64,000 nt of DNA. Origin: Bdellovibrionales bacterium. Lineage in GTDB: Bacteria; Bdellovibrionota; Bdellovibrionia; Bdellovibrionales; Bdellovibrionaceae. A model generated the notes under the pieces. That model was not told the origin of the DNA. It made no database searches and saw only the letters and a program-made list of their open reading frames with translations. Where the stretch lies: contig JANMPT010000110.1 of assembly GCA_031370005.1 (NCBI GenBank), forward strand, positions 64,001-128,000, read 5' to 3'. Each line of letters opens with the position of its first letter. The stretch's first letter is position 1. Positions 3,412 to 50,499 of this stretch are shown here, in pieces. Both the position numbers and the translations under genes were made by a program.

Positions 3412-4269
3412 GTGCGATCACTTTTATTTTCACTTTTTGTCTTCATGACTTTGCCAGCGATAGCCTCAGAGAAAATGCTTCTGGTCGGGGATAGCTGGGC
3501 AGTTTTGATGTGTTTAGATGCTTCATTTAACCACGCATTTCAAAAACAGCATGTTGATGCTCGGGTTGATGCATCCTGTTTGCTAACTGCTGAGATTGGA
3601 ATGCGAGCCGAAAGATGGATGGGGTCTTCATTACAAAAAAGAACAGATAAGATCATGAAAAAGTATAGAGACGTTGGAGTGGTTTATTTAAGTCTTGGCG
3701 GAAATGATTTTATCAATCATTGGAATAAAAACCTCACGTCTGCAGAGGAAGATGTCGAGTTCCAGAAGATAAAACAATCTGTTAAATCGGTGATCGACCA
3801 TATTCATTCGATTTTGCCTCAGGCTAAAATACTTCTATCGGGTTATGACTTTGGAAGATTTGTTGATCACCATCCCATCAAGGCCTATCAAAAAGCCTTT
3901 GAAGGAATGGGAAAACCAGCTCCTCAAGAAATTCATACAGCGATTCTTAGACTTTCCAAAGTTTTAAACGAACTCCGTGACGATCAATCTATTTTCTATA
4001 TCCAACACTACGGTCTAGGACATTTTTATGTCGGCAATAAAGAGGGCGGGCTTCAGCCTGGGGTCACGCTAAATCCTGATGAAATTTCAAATCCAAGGAA
4101 TCCAAATCAATCGGGTGGCGATCCGAACTTGCTGCAGCCACCGTCAGTGATGCTTCATATTGGAAGATTTTTGGTGGACGCTTTTCATCTTTCTGCCAAA
4201 AGTTTTGATAGAGTGGCAGAGCACAGTGTGAGTTTGTATCTAAAATACTGGTTTCAGCCAAAGCAATAA
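3412..4269 (+). CDS. Secreted SGNH/GDSL hydrolase
   Basis: LVGDSW, LGGND and DAFH blocks. Start moved from 3379 to GTG 3412, which follows a GGGGG RBS and begins a signal peptide. Confidence 0.85.
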   Translation: MRSLLFSLFVFMTLPAIASEKMLLVGDSWAVLMCLDASFNHAFQKQHVDARVDASCLLTAEIGMRAERWMGSSLQKRTDKIMKKYRDVGVVYLSLGGNDFINHWNKNLTSAEEDVEFQKIKQSVKSVIDHIHSILPQAKILLSGYDFGRFVDHHPIKAYQKAFEGMGKPAPQEIHTAILRLSKVLNELRDDQSIFYIQHYGLGHFYVGNKEGGLQPGVTLNPDEISNPRNPNQSGGDPNLLQPPSVMLHIGRFLVDAFHLSAKSFDRVAEHSVSLYLKYWFQPKQ

Positions 4270-46069: not shown

Positions 46070-46143
46070 TGGTGGCCCCACCGAGAATCGAACTCGGACA
46101 TCCTTGCGGATACTGGATTTTGAGTCCAGCGCGTCTACCAATT
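46070..46143 (-). repeat. Intron-less 3' fragment of tRNA-Leu(CAA), att-like site
   Basis: AATTGGTAGACGCGCTGGACTCAAAATCCAG...GGGGCCACCA; lacks the first 13 nt of a tRNA; 23-bp block 46121-46143 is identical to 47282-47304. Confidence 0.9.
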
Positions 46144-46222
46144 ATCGACAAAAGTATTGAAATGACTTGGAAAAGTCAAAAAGAAAATCCGTTAGCCTTT
46201 TGGGCTAATCCTTAGCCCTTTG

Positions 46223-46253
46223 GAACCCCCTGAGTATTCTCAGGGGGTTTTTT
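46223..46253 (+). terminator. Strong hairpin, possible terminator
   Basis: AACCCCCTGAG-TATT-CTCAGGGGGTT followed by T run. Confidence 0.6.
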
Positions 46254-46317
46254 ATACTTAAAACCTGCTAATCTTTTTGCTTGCCTTATTTGTAGCTTAT
46301 ATGCTACATTCAAAAAT

Positions 46318-46656
46318 GTGGAAGCTAAACCTCGTCGTATTCGCATCTATGAAACCGAAAATGGCAAACGGCCATTTGAAGAATGGGTTAAGGACCTAAG
46401 AGACCTGCCCACGGTTCGCAGAATTCAGGCCCGCCTTGCGGGCGTGAGTGCTGGAAATCTGGGTGATGTGAAATCTGTTGGTGAAGGTGTTAGTGAGTTG
46501 AGGTTGGCTTTCGGGCCAGGGTATCGGGTTTATTTCGGTGCCGTTGGTAATGAACTGATTATCCTACTGTGTGGTGGTGATAAAAGTTCGCAGGATAAAG
46601 ATATAAAAAAGGCTAAAGAATTTTGGTCTGATTACAGGAGCAAGAACCATGAATGA
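46318..46656 (+). CDS. RelE/ParE-family addiction module toxin
   Basis: GNLGDVKSVGEGVSELRLAFGPGYRVYF...LLCGGDKSSQ; upstream palindrome TGTAGC-N6-GCTACA (46291-46308). Confidence 0.92.
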   Translation: MEAKPRRIRIYETENGKRPFEEWVKDLRDLPTVRRIQARLAGVSAGNLGDVKSVGEGVSELRLAFGPGYRVYFGAVGNELIILLCGGDKSSQDKDIKKAKEFWSDYRSKNHE

Positions 46657-46960
46657 AAAAGCAAGTCGTTCTTATGATGAGTGGGTTGTTGAATCACTGA
46701 AAGGTGATGAAAAAGCCCAAGCGGAGTATGTTCAGACTACGATTGAGGACAACCAAGGTTTTCCTAAAGCAATTCTGGTTGCCCTTCGCCATGTGGCAGA
46801 GGCTCGTGGTTTTAAGAACTTCGCCGATGAAACAAAACTCAACCGTGAGACACTTTATAAAACATTGTCTGAAGACGGAAACCCCACCTTGGAGAGCCTT
46901 ACAAAAATGCTTGATGTGTTGGGGCTTGATATTTCGGTAAAACCTAAAAGAGCCAGTTAA
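46649..46960 (+). CDS. Addiction module antitoxin (HTH)
   Basis: ALRHVAEARG...LNRETLYKTLSEDGNPTL. Confidence 0.92.
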   Translation: MNEKASRSYDEWVVESLKGDEKAQAEYVQTTIEDNQGFPKAILVALRHVAEARGFKNFADETKLNRETLYKTLSEDGNPTLESLTKMLDVLGLDISVKPKRAS

Positions 46961-46971
46961 GAAGTTTAAAA

Positions 46972-47317
46972 TGGTGGCCCCGGGGAGAATCGAACTCCCA
47001 CGTCCTTACGGACACTGGATTTTCTTACCACTCTGGTTTTCACCAGCTCTTGTTAAAGAGTTTGTGGTCTGGACTATGCCTTGACCGTGAAGCCTTACAG
47101 CTCGTTAGGTCCCGCTCGTCTAGTCTCTACACCTTCCGAAGAGATTTCTCTCTAAGGCTTGGCTCGGCATTAGCAGTCTAATTTTACTTAGATTAAGCCT
47201 TCACCGAATTTGGGCGGTTCTACTCCGAGGGTTTCCCCAAGGGCACTCAAGTTATGCTGACTTTTTATGAGGTCAGCGGTCTGAGTCCAGCGCGTCTACC
47301 AATTCCACCACAGGGCC
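46972..47317 (-). tRNA. tRNA-Leu(CAA), 87 nt spliced; exons 47283-47317 and 46972-47023
   Basis: Joined exons give GGCCCTG/CGGGGCC acceptor stem, CTGGA-CTCAAAA-TCCAG anticodon arm, long variable arm, GGGAG-TTCGATT-CTCCC T arm, ACCA end. Confidence 0.93.
47024..47282 (-). ncRNA. Group I self-splicing intron, 259 nt, no ORF
   Basis: Core elements AAATTCGGTGAA (P), AATGCCGAGC (Q), GTAGAGACTAGA (R), AAGGCATAGTCC (S); terminal G; guide TTGAGT complementary to the 5' exon end. Confidence 0.92.
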
Positions 47318-47460
47318 ATTTACTAATAGATGACATATCTTGTAATGGAAAACAGTGGCTCCATTCAAGCTGTTTTTAGTTGTTCTTGAATCAAGGAGGC
47401 AGTGAGTTATGATGAGGGCTAATTGGGAGGGCCCTCAAATTAGAAAATGTGCGCTCTTTG

Positions 47461-48549
47461 CTAGGTTTTTTCGGCTACAAGTAAGCCGTGATGCATGGGT
47501 AATTTACTAACTTTTATTTTTGAGAAACCGGCCTTTCGAATTAACTGTAGATACTCGTTCCAAGTATAGAGCATGCCCTCTCCCGTGGCGAGGGTGAGGA
47601 AATAGGGAGAGCCCATGGAGGCCGACATGGGGCCAGTCTCATTATTATTTTGCATCATATTGAAAATGACTAATTTGCCACCATCGGGCAATGTATTGTA
47701 GACGTTTTGAATAAGTTTATAATTTTTTTCCAGGGACCAAATCGTTAAAAAATGACAGAGAATGAAACAGTCCGGGCCCTTGGGAAGGGGGTCGTGGAAA
47801 CAATTCCCTTCGTACGCAGTGAGCCGAGTGCTAAGGCCATGATTTTTAAAGTTGTCACGCGCAAGTGCAGCAACACTTGGCGAGTCAAAGACGCCACCCT
47901 TTAAATGCTCATTAGCTTTCACTAGTTTCATAATATTTTCGCCGGCTCCACCGCCGATATCAACTGCAAATTTTGTATTTGAAAGGTCCAAATTTTCTAA
48001 TAGTTGCTGGTTTGCTTGACGAGAAATATCCTCCATAGCTAACTGGAAAACTTGTTCAAGTTCAGGGTGTGAAGCCAATCGCTCATAGAGCGTGGTTCCA
48101 TTTCCTGGAAATTCTTTAAGCCCAACATTTGTATTTTGTAGAATGGATTCGTAAAAATAAGGCATCGCCTTATAATTTATAAAATTCTGCCAATTTACTA
48201 TATTATTAATGCATTTTGGACTGGATGATACGAAAGAAATTTCAGCAAGTTTTGAATTATAATAGAACTCACCTTTCTTTTTGAGCAAGTTCAGAGACGT
48301 GAGGCCTAAAAGAAGTATACGACAAGGCTTTTCTTCAATTTTTAAGAGACCAGCGAGTTCATCCTTGGTTATTCTCTTGCGTGAATTGATAATGTCAAAT
48401 ACGCCTAAGCGAACTGCGGCAGCTAAAGTTTGAAAATAAATATGCCCACTGAGAACTAAATACAGCTCACGAATTTTATTTCTAAATAATACTTTTTCAA
48501 ATACGTAGACAGCAATAAAGGTCCTAAAAATTCTAACTAAATGTCTCAT
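47461..48549 (-). CDS. O-methyltransferase (Methyltransf_2 with dimerisation domain)
   Basis: AAVRLGVFD, VDIGGGAG, GNCFHDPLP, LPDGGKLVI. Confidence 0.9.
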   Translation of the reverse strand: MRHLVRIFRTFIAVYVFEKVLFRNKIRELYLVLSGHIYFQTLAAAVRLGVFDIINSRKRITKDELAGLLKIEEKPCRILLLGLTSLNLLKKKGEFYYNSKLAEISFVSSSPKCINNIVNWQNFINYKAMPYFYESILQNTNVGLKEFPGNGTTLYERLASHPELEQVFQLAMEDISRQANQQLLENLDLSNTKFAVDIGGGAGENIMKLVKANEHLKGGVFDSPSVAALARDNFKNHGLSTRLTAYEGNCFHDPLPKGPDCFILCHFLTIWSLEKNYKLIQNVYNTLPDGGKLVIFNMMQNNNETGPMSASMGSPYFLTLATGEGMLYTWNEYLQLIRKAGFSKIKVSKLPMHHGLLVAEKT

Positions 48550-48609
48550 GTCAGCTCCTTGCGGTAGGCTATATGGAAACGATATGAACTCAAGTTCAAA
48601 AAATTATTA

Positions 48610-50499
48610 TTGAGGAGGTTTTTGGATCGATCTATTGACATGGGTGGCAAATTAATAGATCGTGCTGCAATGAAAACCGCCCGTGACATTGTGGACATGC
48701 TAGAGCTCGCATTAAAGCTCCGCTTACTTAGGAAGTGGGAAGAGTTAGAGATTATTATTAAATCGATTCGCGCTGTAAAAATTGATGATGAGTATAAGAA
48801 AAAATGGATGGCCATTCAAATCCAGTTACTAGAGCAATCTCAATTTCGATATGAAAAAAATCATGAAGAAAAGATAAAAATTATACAATTGGCCGAACGG
48901 ATTTTGTCAGACGATGACAAGCGAAAATCATTTATCTATCAATATGAATTGTCTGGATTGTGTATAGCCAAACATTCCTATTTAAAGGGACTAGAGTCTG
49001 CGCTTGCAGCTGTTAAAGTAACAAATAATCCAAACGGAAAAATATCAGCCTTGGTCAATGGGCTCGTCTGTGCTGAAGCCTTAGACTTAGAAAGAGCAAA
49101 GTTACTTGTAAAAACCAAGCGGCTACTTTCACAATCCAAAACAAATGCGATAAATCCGTTGGTTGTTCGAGAGCTTGCTAATTTTCAGCTAAGAGAATAC
49201 TTTAGGTTAGGCGAGTTTCGAAAAGTGTTCACAAGCATTCATGAGCCAAGAATTAAAAAAGATATTTCGCTTTATCAGGCATGGATACAGGCATTGCCCC
49301 ATATTAAACTAAAGCAAAAATATGATATATTTAATTTGCATTCCAAGCAAACAACCACACAAGTAAATAGAGAGTATAAATTAGACACGCTCTTGCATAA
49401 GTTTGATTCTGAAAATATTCAAATTGCTGCAGTTCATAATATCATTGATCGCATTTACCTATGGTCTTGGCGGTTTTTTTGTGATCCATATAAATACCCA
49501 ATTGAAAATTTGCAAACCTTGCTCACCTCATTGGAGCTATCAAAACTTAAAAATAAAATGACGTCAGAAGATAAATTGTTGTTTATGAGCTCACTCTTAT
49601 TGCTGTCTTGTTTAGACACGTCCTTGCTTTTGAAAGTTAAAAAGCTCGAGAAAGCATTGCACCCGCTCAATTATGGTTCATATCCATATTTGAACTATGA
49701 AAGGAAATTTATTGAGTTGTATTTGGCGAAGCATTTGGGAGACCCGAATTATGAGACCTTAAGGCTCTCGTTAATTGCAGATGATTTTATGAGCAATGCC
49801 TACATCACTTTTAACAAGTATATAAAGTCGAATTTTGAGTCCTGTTATGGTCTCTTCGTGCTTGATATGCATCATCTGGAATTGAAGAATAAAATTCCAA
49901 TTGAGGCAGAGATAGTTTTTAATTCATTGACTGGGATGATCAAATTCACTCGTGGATGTAAGGCATTAAAAAGTGAGTTATTAGTCAATGCGCTGTCGTA
50001 TTTTTTTCACTCAGAAAGTCAGCAAGTATCTGCCAAAGACTTTTTTATTTCTGTTTTTGGGGGTAAAGATTTTGATCCAGCGACTAACTATAGACAGGTG
50101 TTTAATGTAATTCAAAGGCTCAATCTAGTAACAAATGGAAAACTTAAAATCAGGTATAAAAATAAAAAGTTATTGTTCGCTATGGAGAAAGAATCATTTT
50201 TCTCAGAAAATCATATTTTTCATGAAATTAGTTTCAACGCCTCGTTTTTTCAAAAAAGACTTTCGAAATGGTTGGGAGAATTGAGTAATAAAACCGCAAG
50301 TAAGAGCGCGCAAGCGAAGCGATCTCCGGCCAGTGTCTTTTTAACACAACAGAAGCTGACTCGAATAGATATTCAAAAGGCACTAAATACTTCAAAAAGT
50401 ACAAGTATAAGAATTCTTAATGAGTGGAAAAAACAAAAAATCATAAAATGCTCTGGCAAGGGGCCAGCGACTTCCTATTGGCTAAGCGAGCTTTCGTGA
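48610..50499 (+). CDS. Large helical protein with C-terminal winged-HTH, putative regulator
   Basis: C-terminal LTRIDIQKALNTSKSTSIRILNEW...GKGPATSY; divergent from the methyltransferase; start uncertain. Confidence 0.65.
   Translation: MRRFLDRSIDMGGKLIDRAAMKTARDIVDMLELALKLRLLRKWEELEIIIKSIRAVKIDDEYKKKWMAIQIQLLEQSQFRYEKNHEEKIKIIQLAERILSDDDKRKSFIYQYELSGLCIAKHSYLKGLESALAAVKVTNNPNGKISALVNGLVCAEALDLERAKLLVKTKRLLSQSKTNAINPLVVRELANFQLREYFRLGEFRKVFTSIHEPRIKKDISLYQAWIQALPHIKLKQKYDIFNLHSKQTTTQVNREYKLDTLLHKFDSENIQIAAVHNIIDRIYLWSWRFFCDPYKYPIENLQTLLTSLELSKLKNKMTSEDKLLFMSSLLLLSCLDTSLLLKVKKLEKALHPLNYGSYPYLNYERKFIELYLAKHLGDPNYETLRLSLIADDFMSNAYITFNKYIKSNFESCYGLFVLDMHHLELKNKIPIEAEIVFNSLTGMIKFTRGCKALKSELLVNALSYFFHSESQQVSAKDFFISVFGGKDFDPATNYRQVFNVIQRLNLVTNGKLKIRYKNKKLLFAMEKESFFSENHIFHEISFNASFFQKRLSKWLGELSNKTASKSAQAKRSPASVFLTQQKLTRIDIQKALNTSKSTSIRILNEWKKQKIIKCSGKGPATSYWLSELS

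Follow-up and report, generated by a model that had tools for sequence, protein, structure and literature searches.

The window, that is the whole stretch of 64,000 nucleotides from a Bdellovibrionales bacterium that was analysed, carries on its minus strand (47317-46972) a complete tRNA-Leu(CAA) gene split between the anticodon bases C34 and A35. The 5' exon (47283..47317, 35 nt, minus strand) spans gene positions 1-35 and ends with C34; it is followed by an ORF-less group I intron of 259 nt (47024..47282, minus strand) and by a 3' exon (46972..47023, 52 nt, minus strand) with the encoded CCA and the GGGAG/CTCCC T stem typical of the family. This intron-bearing copy is the sole complete tRNA-Leu(CAA) called in the assembly; a tRNA-Leu(UAA) could read UUG by wobble. 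Located 829 bp downstream, in the same orientation, is an intron-less tRNA fragment of 74 nt (46143-46070, minus strand), which corresponds to gene positions 14-87 and is identical to the spliced gene at 66 of its 74 positions. Its first part, a tRNA-like att core of gene positions 14-39 (46118..46143, minus strand), ends in the anticodon loop CTCAAAA, and the remainder (46070..46117, minus strand) is a 3' half with a CCGAG/CTCGG T stem. The gene and the fragment share a perfect repeat of 23 bp (46121-46143 and 47282-47304), whose 23rd base is the first A of the intron; chance can be dismissed as its origin, since BLAST within the genome gave E-values of 1.9e-9 for the 3' part and 1.5e-4 for the 23 bp. 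The fragment, devoid of positions 1-13 (fold z -0.35), was rejected as a working tRNA.

Between the two tRNA features, on the plus strand and opposite to the tRNA, lies a type II addiction module, with the toxin first and the two genes adjacent and overlapping. The toxin, a HI1419-like protein of the RelE/ParE family (46318..46656), scores 120.8 bits with TIGR02683 (cut-off 62.85), and the HI1420-like antitoxin (46649..46960), which also matches PF21716, scores 63.9 bits with TIGR02684 (cut-off 53.7). Both proteins are above their NCBIfam cut-offs, and as a module of the HI1419/HI1420 type the pair shows nothing unusual. A strong terminator-like hairpin (46215..46253, no strand assigned; fold z -6.2), recognized in a terminator scan, is common to the interior of the element in genome G123 (L168:7722-7761, identical in 38 of 40 columns). 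Neither in the island nor near it was an integrase of this family found; because this enzyme (PF00589) is present in relatives and absent from the window, the locus is to be regarded as a remnant and not as a working member of the family. The toxin-antitoxin pair may help to keep this remnant in place. Seven PF00589 matches exist in the own genome, all on other contigs. A preliminary description of this DNA had reported the intron in the complete gene, the same-orientation fragment past the addiction module, the 23-bp identity on the 5' side of the intron and the differences in T stem and variable arm, all of which were found as described; its view that the island has shrunk to an addiction module agrees with the toxin-antitoxin pair being all that is left next to the arm, with no family integrase.

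The intron and its affinities

The intron matches the Rfam family RF00028 at 33.9 bits (E 1.7e-6, core motifs aligned), below the gathering score of 50; a search at the gathering threshold misses it, and the survey of Williams 2020 (10.1101/2020.01.27.920355) used a threshold of 20 bits. Its longest stop-free frame has 51 codons. Removal of the insert behind C34 restores an anticodon loop of seven nucleotides and yields a spliced form 100% identical to the uninterrupted gene of genome G018. In the P1 helix C(-1) pairs with G instead of forming the usual U-G pair, the last base of the intron is G, and the guide TGAGT is kept in 16 of 16 aligned intron copies, in G195 at a position displaced by a small insertion. 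By its site after C34, the Watson-Crick C-G pair at the 5' splice site and the terminal G, the intron appears to belong to the Leu.3Cg class of Williams 2020 (10.1101/2020.01.27.920355), a paper that counted 72 such copies, stated that splicing needs to be tested and did not discuss movement. Putative self-splicing would have to proceed despite the C-G pair; a contig from an RNA run skips exactly the 259 nt, but possibly derives from an intron-less relative. Related intron-bearing pieces occur in the RNA runs X15, X16, X18 and X19, as contigs, which cannot show splicing, and runs with a small share of matching sequence carry no information on habitat.

The closest copy of the intron, 95.4% identical, is borne by an element, and the copies of the same genus are 87.5-90.8% identical. 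A clade of the four same-genus introns was rejected with p-AU 8.5e-68, in clade tests that were run after the tree had been seen; this tree is based on 262 columns of mosaic-looking introns, has strong support for 2 of its 16 branches and omits the broken copy G304. The comparison of intron and host phylogenies proposed earlier has, for the sequences aligned, shown the grouping of the introns to be discordant with that of their hosts. Regardless of context, the anticodon intron occurs in 12 of 182 family genomes and in 17 of 384 order genomes. At least 55 of the 182 family genomes have an uninterrupted tRNA-Leu(CAA) with at least 90% identity to the window's gene in spliced form, so that GGGAG/CTCCC is the family norm with or without the intron. 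Among all loci compared in the T-stem tally, CCGAG/CTCGG was seen only in copies of the window. The argument from the T stem that the 3' exon of the complete gene is foreign had to be abandoned.

attR and the intact relatives

Immediately ahead of the fragment comes the element's right arm (P arm; 46144..46188, minus strand). Within this arm, 46149-46188 are identical at 40 of 40 positions to the equal span ahead of the tRNA-Leu(CAA) 3' fragment in G123 (32/33 in G126), and the att core has the span and the register of the attR in G123, G126, G057 and G189. A survey of 384 order genomes for the arm motif gave 7 with it and none with the reversed control; five of the seven carry the intron, as compared to 17 of the 384 overall. 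A tRNA-Leu 3' half follows the motif in four of the seven, namely the window, G123, G126 and G189; in G314 a contig end cuts the motif, 233 bp behind an intron-bearing gene, and G036 and G088 have the motif without a tRNA piece. In G189 the half at attR is the host's own, quite different gene; attR therefore retains the half of whichever gene was in the site before. The fragment is thus a true attR with the displaced 3' half of an earlier, intron-less gene, as originally proposed. Island-free relatives with the intron and the GGGAG/CTCCC 3' exon had been named as the finding that would turn the fragment into the foreign piece; two genomes, G003 and G036, are formally of this kind, yet a simply foreign fragment does not follow, since the fragment lies immediately after the element's arm.

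The expectation that the empty-site 3' half of close relatives would match the fragment was not borne out: neither 61 relatives nor 151 phylum genomes gave a full-length match over 91%, and there was none in viral contigs. An earlier, non-native spare tRNA is the probable origin of the displaced half, because the spares of these elements often have odd T stems (G057, L086, G320, G142) and because serial replacement can be followed at a tRNA-Leu(UAA), G006:C28, where the intron of the displaced gene is 91% identical to that of another element's spare. The site in the window would then have been replaced more than once. A crossover in the T loop was rejected, as both T stems are self-complementary but different from each other.

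A whole element of 9.4 kb is preserved in G123, with a tyrosine integrase (PF00589) and cargo that includes a weak Rep_trans match. Its order is host 5' half ending CTCAAAA, left arm of 174 bp, complete intron-bearing tRNA-Leu(CAA), integrase, cargo, right arm and host 3' half. Left ends with the host 5' half and a spare tRNA containing the anticodon intron were found in G002, G118, G123, G320, L086 and L087, and left ends with a spare containing a D-loop intron in G057, G023 and G017. The latter is a different group I intron, inserted after U20 (RF00028, 43.8 bits), with the canonical U-G pair and a terminal G. G142 combines the host 5' half with a strongly diverged spare without intron, and in L085 right arm, core and left arm are joined, followed by an intron-bearing spare. 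The spare is found 140-174 bp in from attL and precedes the integrase gene. It is complete in 9 of 11 loci; in G023 and G017 the contig end falls inside the intron. An intron is present in 10 of the 11 spares, a pattern and neither a test nor 11 independent events, as the elements are related to each other; G320, G023 and G017 have no integrase on the same contig. The relatives with a cognate integrase are labelled as Pseudobdellovibrionaceae or Bdellovibrionales. The left arm has three conserved TGGTAGAY-like motifs. Elements with more distant integrases repeat the layout with a spare at other tRNA genes, with an intron in 7 of 8 Leu(UAA) spares (including C49 of the own genome), 0 of 3 for Leu(GAG), 0 of 1 for Leu(CAG) and 0 of 2 for Cys. 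G231 contains a canonical 3'-fragment island, and no orphan half was found in G168, G244, G024 and G092 within the DNA examined.

All ten intact left junctions contain only the short core, and the tRNA is not rebuilt; the one arm-core-arm junction likewise has the core only. An attP with a 3' part that restores the gene occurs in none of these 11 junctions of relatives, and the complete spare lies further in, at variance with the original proposal that an attP containing the intron and the 3' exon rebuilt the gene. The point of strand exchange can be read from several junctions. In G123 the host's anticodon-stem variant is divided between attL and attR, and in G126 arm-specific bases reach gene position 30; the attL identity stops at position 39. 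Intron-bearing displaced halves (G006:C28, with a distant integrase, and probably the X2 contig, an assembly from the unrelated sequencing run X2) place the exchange at or before position 36. From these junction bases and displaced halves, strand exchange appears to map to gene positions 31-36, on the 5' side of the anticodon loop and just before the intron site.

This position bears on the shield idea, by which the intron would keep the element's own integrase off the spare. Its appeal is that both intron sites lie inside the 26-nt core and that the intron-less spares differ near the core. The idea is weakened by G006:C28, a Leu(UAA) case, in which an intact intron lies in the displaced 3' half and the matching orphan 5' half is 17.8 kb away, and further by the X2 contig, which joins the arm of the element family to the intron; G303 is a decayed case of a displaced intron-bearing half. 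In G252 a single base near the core distinguishes the Leu(CAG) spare from the host half, which does not help the idea either. A strict shield is contradicted, since two junctions show that intron-bearing genes were cut. Hitchhiking is the better supported explanation for the introns on the spares, and it would let an ORF-less intron move horizontally at no cost. A shield that works in part may still exist, for instance if the D-loop intron breaks up a TGGTAGAY motif that is repeated in the left arm.

Possible routes of the intron into the host gene

Since intact relatives cut this very gene and carry a spare that usually contains the intron, the element likely brought the intron. On balance, the locus is probably a shrunken remnant of a tyrosine-integrase element, with the intron-bearing spare put under the host promoter by a later deletion. 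As displayed by the relatives, the integrase would have recombined at the short anticodon-loop core, with the host 5' half staying at attL, the 3' half, here presumably that of the earlier non-native spare, at attR and no rebuilding of the tRNA, and a complete, usually intron-split spare tRNA-Leu(CAA) would have arrived 140-174 bp inside attL. Recombination between the two identical 5' halves of 36 bp would then have dropped the left arm and joined the host promoter and 5' exon to the intron and 3' exon of the element. A second deletion would have taken the integrase and most of the cargo and left the toxin-antitoxin pair, the right arm and attR. For the joining step, only the presumed start and end states are seen in genomes.

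Both flanks of the complete gene are in line with this sequence of events. The leader, a host-type promoter region of 70 nt (47318..47387, minus strand), aligns with resident leaders of the same genus (57/70 with G005; scores of 8 to 37, where shuffles average near -15 with sd 5) and shows no similarity to four element leaders (scores of -7 to -10). By contrast, the 15 nt after the CCA (46957..46971, minus strand) match the bases after the spare's CCA in the elements of G002 and G123 apart from one extra T, and were not found after the resident intron-less genes compared. Their last 4 nt overlap the antitoxin stop, which is likely the deletion junction where the integrase was lost. The fused state with the integrase still behind the gene exists in G006 and G126; the integrase of G006 is 86% identical to that of G002 over 96 residues, and G126 has a hybrid acceptor stem with host T4 and element G69, A69 being kept at its attR. 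Among the relatives, the stages comprise the arm-core-arm junction (L085), the intact element (G123), fusion with integrase (G126, G006), fusion with shrinkage (the window) and a clean intron-bearing gene (G003, G036).

One has to ask whether the fused state could be an assembly artefact, the left arm having been skipped between the two 36-bp repeats, with an orphan 5' half and a spare as the real state. The equivalent junction of G126 indeed falls at a contig overlap of 55 nt, the Logan contigs from what is probably the source run meet at the window's junction in a 30-nt overlap, none of those listed bridging leader and intron, and 46137-46971 are outside the pieces listed for that run. However, the junction is internal to a contig of 184 kb here and of 32 kb in G006, a 36-bp repeat is far below the usual read length, BLAST detected no second tRNA-Leu(CAA) 5' half in the genome, and no left arm is among the loose ends shown (46 more are not shown). 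An artefact is accordingly very improbable.

A different route would be the direct integration of a circle whose attP consists of arm, core, intron and 3' exon, with a crossover just 5' of the intron that rebuilds the gene in one step; such circles could come from the excision of an already fused element. This yields exactly the layout of the window, and the intron need not block it, as gene positions 31-36, where the exchange maps, lie 5' of the intron site. Fused elements with an intact integrase exist (G006, G126), in an 837-nt contig from run X2 (depth 6.7) arm and core are joined to the intron, the stretch that fits both sides being only 11 letters long, and the accessible portion of PMC3293823 puts forward a comparable model for a tRNA intron of an archaeon. 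Against this stand the 0 of 11 intact junctions and the 0 of 7 genome matches to the arm motif with the order arm-core-intron. The X2 contig, moreover, stops 49 nt into the intron and could equally represent an attR formed in an intron-bearing host gene, the layout of G006:C28, and the circle would be without the left arm and its three TGGTAGAY-like motifs, which the integrase probably needs. Direct integration is therefore rather unlikely.

The search for phages or elements with the intron in their attP, suggested in the preliminary description, left only the ambiguous X2 contig on the positive side. In viral contigs the integrase gave no match with one protein query and three distant ones with an alignment query; the 5' junction pattern returned only one unrelated uninterrupted tRNA, the 3' junction pattern only one phage tRNA-Leu(UAA) intron, and the geometry and D-loop patterns 0 matches. 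Metagenome contigs contained no match to the integrase, and of 50,697 records of annotated phages 7 had partial matches, none covering 80%. Of the delivery proposed at the outset, the element as carrier is likely to stand, reconstruction of the gene at attL is not upheld, and the X2 contig keeps the direct route as a minority option.

The intron might also have entered the resident gene separately, by gene conversion from a transient copy or by inheritance, with the island end left by an unrelated earlier integration. An intron without attR is found in G003, which is of the same genus and has a host-type leader, and in G036, the 3' exon is typical of the family, and the introns look mosaic, which indicates that conversion between copies happens. 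This scheme conflicts with the intron-bearing spares in the element family to which the arm belongs, with the element-type 15 nt behind the CCA, and with the intron-less fragment, from which it follows that the occupant at integration had no anticodon intron; in addition, the G003 intron groups with that of G126 (another genus) and not with that of the window. Separate entry is thus unlikely.

Homing by an endonuclease, since lost or acting in trans, and reverse splicing are the textbook routes for group I introns (PMC3984707, in its accessible part). The intron measures 250-280 nt in all 19 complete copies, which offers no room for an endonuclease gene, and homing leaves both the element-type bases after the CCA and the enrichment on elements unexplained; for reverse splicing, the same review notes in that part that direct evidence from experiments is lacking. 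These mechanisms hardly come into consideration here. Considering the arm, the intact relatives and the arm-motif survey, delivery by an integrative element rather than by endonuclease homing, as initially suggested, is very likely.

Returning to the deletion scheme, if the DNA between the 52-bp 3' repeats were deleted in turn, the product would be a clean intron-bearing gene of the kind seen in G003 and G036. Within the DNA examined, the intron is without adjacent family integrase and without attR in G003, G036, G195 and G313 (the DNA of G313 stops 429 bp downstream). One may speculate, with about as much reason to doubt as to believe it, that ORF-less group I introns of bacterial tRNA genes generally ride on tRNA-replacing elements, passing from the spare to the host promoter by deletion between 5' repeats and then to a scarless gain by deletion between the 52-bp 3' repeats, a kind of homing without homing endonuclease.

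Relation to known systems

The closest parallel is the tRNA-dependent lysogeny of actinobacteriophages described by Fionnbharth and others (PMC10865867), whose accessible text reports the same combination of a tyrosine integrase, a short anticodon-loop core, a tRNA that is not rebuilt and a complete tRNA of the same isotype supplied by the incoming DNA; secondary sites keep only the three bases CTT, and the exchange is, as in the Bdellovibrionales element, on the 5' side of the loop. In contrast to what that text describes, the system here is a non-phage element of about 9.4 kb with a weak Rep_trans match, and its spare is located just inside attL, is near-identical to the host gene, usually contains a group I intron and can be fused to the host promoter. 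With canonical tRNA-gene islands, as presented in the accessible part of the Islander work (PMC4383910), the window shares the full gene, the same-orientation 3' fragment and the anticodon-centred site, whereas attP does not rebuild the gene in the intact relatives; the canonical island look of the window is likely secondary. With 829 bp and no integrase, the window would fail the Islander filters given there for length (2 kb or more) and integrase. A canonical-looking island end can, in other words, hide a non-canonical history.

As regards the introns, the survey of Williams 2020 (10.1101/2020.01.27.920355) covered anticodon-loop positions only, so that the D-loop intron of some element spares falls outside it; the locus and its relatives offer natural substrates for the class with the C-G splice site. 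The usual answer to how ORF-less group I introns reach patchily distributed bacterial tRNA genes is reverse splicing, without direct experimental support according to the accessible part of PMC3984707. The present locus and its relatives give a concrete route for intron spread at the DNA level and add elements of Bdellovibrionales, at five types of tRNA, to the known range of tRNA-dependent integration. A search of the literature, with most subscription papers and the table and supplements of Williams 2020 outside it, found no report in which a group I intron of a bacterial tRNA is linked to a spare carried by an element. Recombination of the entire intron-bearing tRNA-Leu(UAA) locus has reportedly been described in a study of cyanobacteria and may bear on novelty.

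In the archaeon Caldiarchaeum subterraneum, an intron-bearing tRNA gene was likewise found beside a fragment and a recombinase, and the accessible part of PMC3293823 proposes that the intron came from the element; it also cites the shield idea of Randau and Soll, by which an intron hinders later invasion. Unlike the protein-spliced archaeal introns at the one locus treated there, the intron here is of the ribozyme type and a series of states across genomes is available, in which two junctions speak against a strict form of the shield. Three ingredients are each already in print, namely the intron class, integration that depends on a tRNA and, for an archaeon, tRNA introns borne by an element, and the gain is therefore not a new system; what is new is the probable hand-over of the intron-bearing spare to the host gene, together with the series of states across relatives.

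Elements at tRNA-Leu(UAA)

The spare-tRNA design of the tRNA-Leu(CAA) elements, in which a complete tRNA gene is carried inside the element near attL, is also seen at tRNA-Leu(UAA) in the window's own genome (G000). At the end of its contig C49, an orphan 5' half is followed, after ≈ 105 bp, by a complete intron-bearing spare (L046:9542-10042), and two displaced tRNA-Leu(UAA) 3' halves (L045:2439-2500 and 3716-3780) flank another TA-like pair on C84, a separate contig. An element at tRNA-Leu(UAA) of a relative (G006:C28) has displaced a 3' half that bears an intron (L162:3335-5239 and L167:3190-3510); this intron is 91% identical to the spare intron of another element, a case of serial replacement. 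The same displaced half is evidence against a strict version of the shield idea, namely that an intron in the spare stops the integrase from using that spare.

Spare tRNAs, leaders and a second intron site

At Leu(CAA), Leu(GAG), Leu(UAA) and Cys, the spares that lack an intron are set apart from the host half by differences beside the core, the short tRNA-like att sequence, and these fall in the D arm or the anticodon stem (L067:1793-2100 in G142; L164, L166, L116, L163, L154, L158). Upstream of spare tRNAs, and of several intron-bearing genes without an orphan half, lies a TCTTTGA(A/T)AA(T/C)TGAAT-like motif (L004:1115-1145; equivalent leaders in G123, G118, G057, G142, G009, G114, G252, G314 and G304), which we take to resemble the rRNA boxA antiterminator. 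Two orphan 5' halves stand in tandem upstream of tRNA-Leu(CAA) in G053, with 168 bp between them (L039:8293-8706), and are possibly stacked left junctions.

The D-loop of tRNA-Leu(CAA) is the site of a second group I intron, inserted after U20, with a P1 U-G pair and a terminal G. Carriers amount to 3 of the 384 genomes of the order by BLAST, plus G017, spotted by eye at a contig end (L066); the other copies lie in G057 (L034:2339-2550), G023 (L065:1-144) and G128 (L068:3609-3845). The survey of tRNA introns by Williams tested anticodon-loop sites as sole positions (10.1101/2020.01.27.920355).

Surroundings, plasmid matches and cargo

A low-GC stretch (35-36%; window 47461-50499), with genes for an O-methyltransferase and for an unknown protein of 629 aa, separates the window tRNA from the conserved block of outer-membrane-protein, GNAT, rimP and nusA genes; the equivalent position in the examined relatives holds different genes, or none. 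The intron region is matched at 60-80% in 1,253 of 72,556 plasmid records (PLSDB; hits H12-H27), mostly from enterobacterial hosts and without annotation in 20 of the 20 matches listed.

Among the cargo of the G126 element, directly behind the integrase, is a class I aminoacyl-tRNA synthetase of the I/L/M/V family, 866 aa long (L169:1957-4557). On G000:C92 three tyrosine recombinase genes lie in tandem (L048:882-4044), an arrangement that presumably resembles a recombinase-in-trio element.
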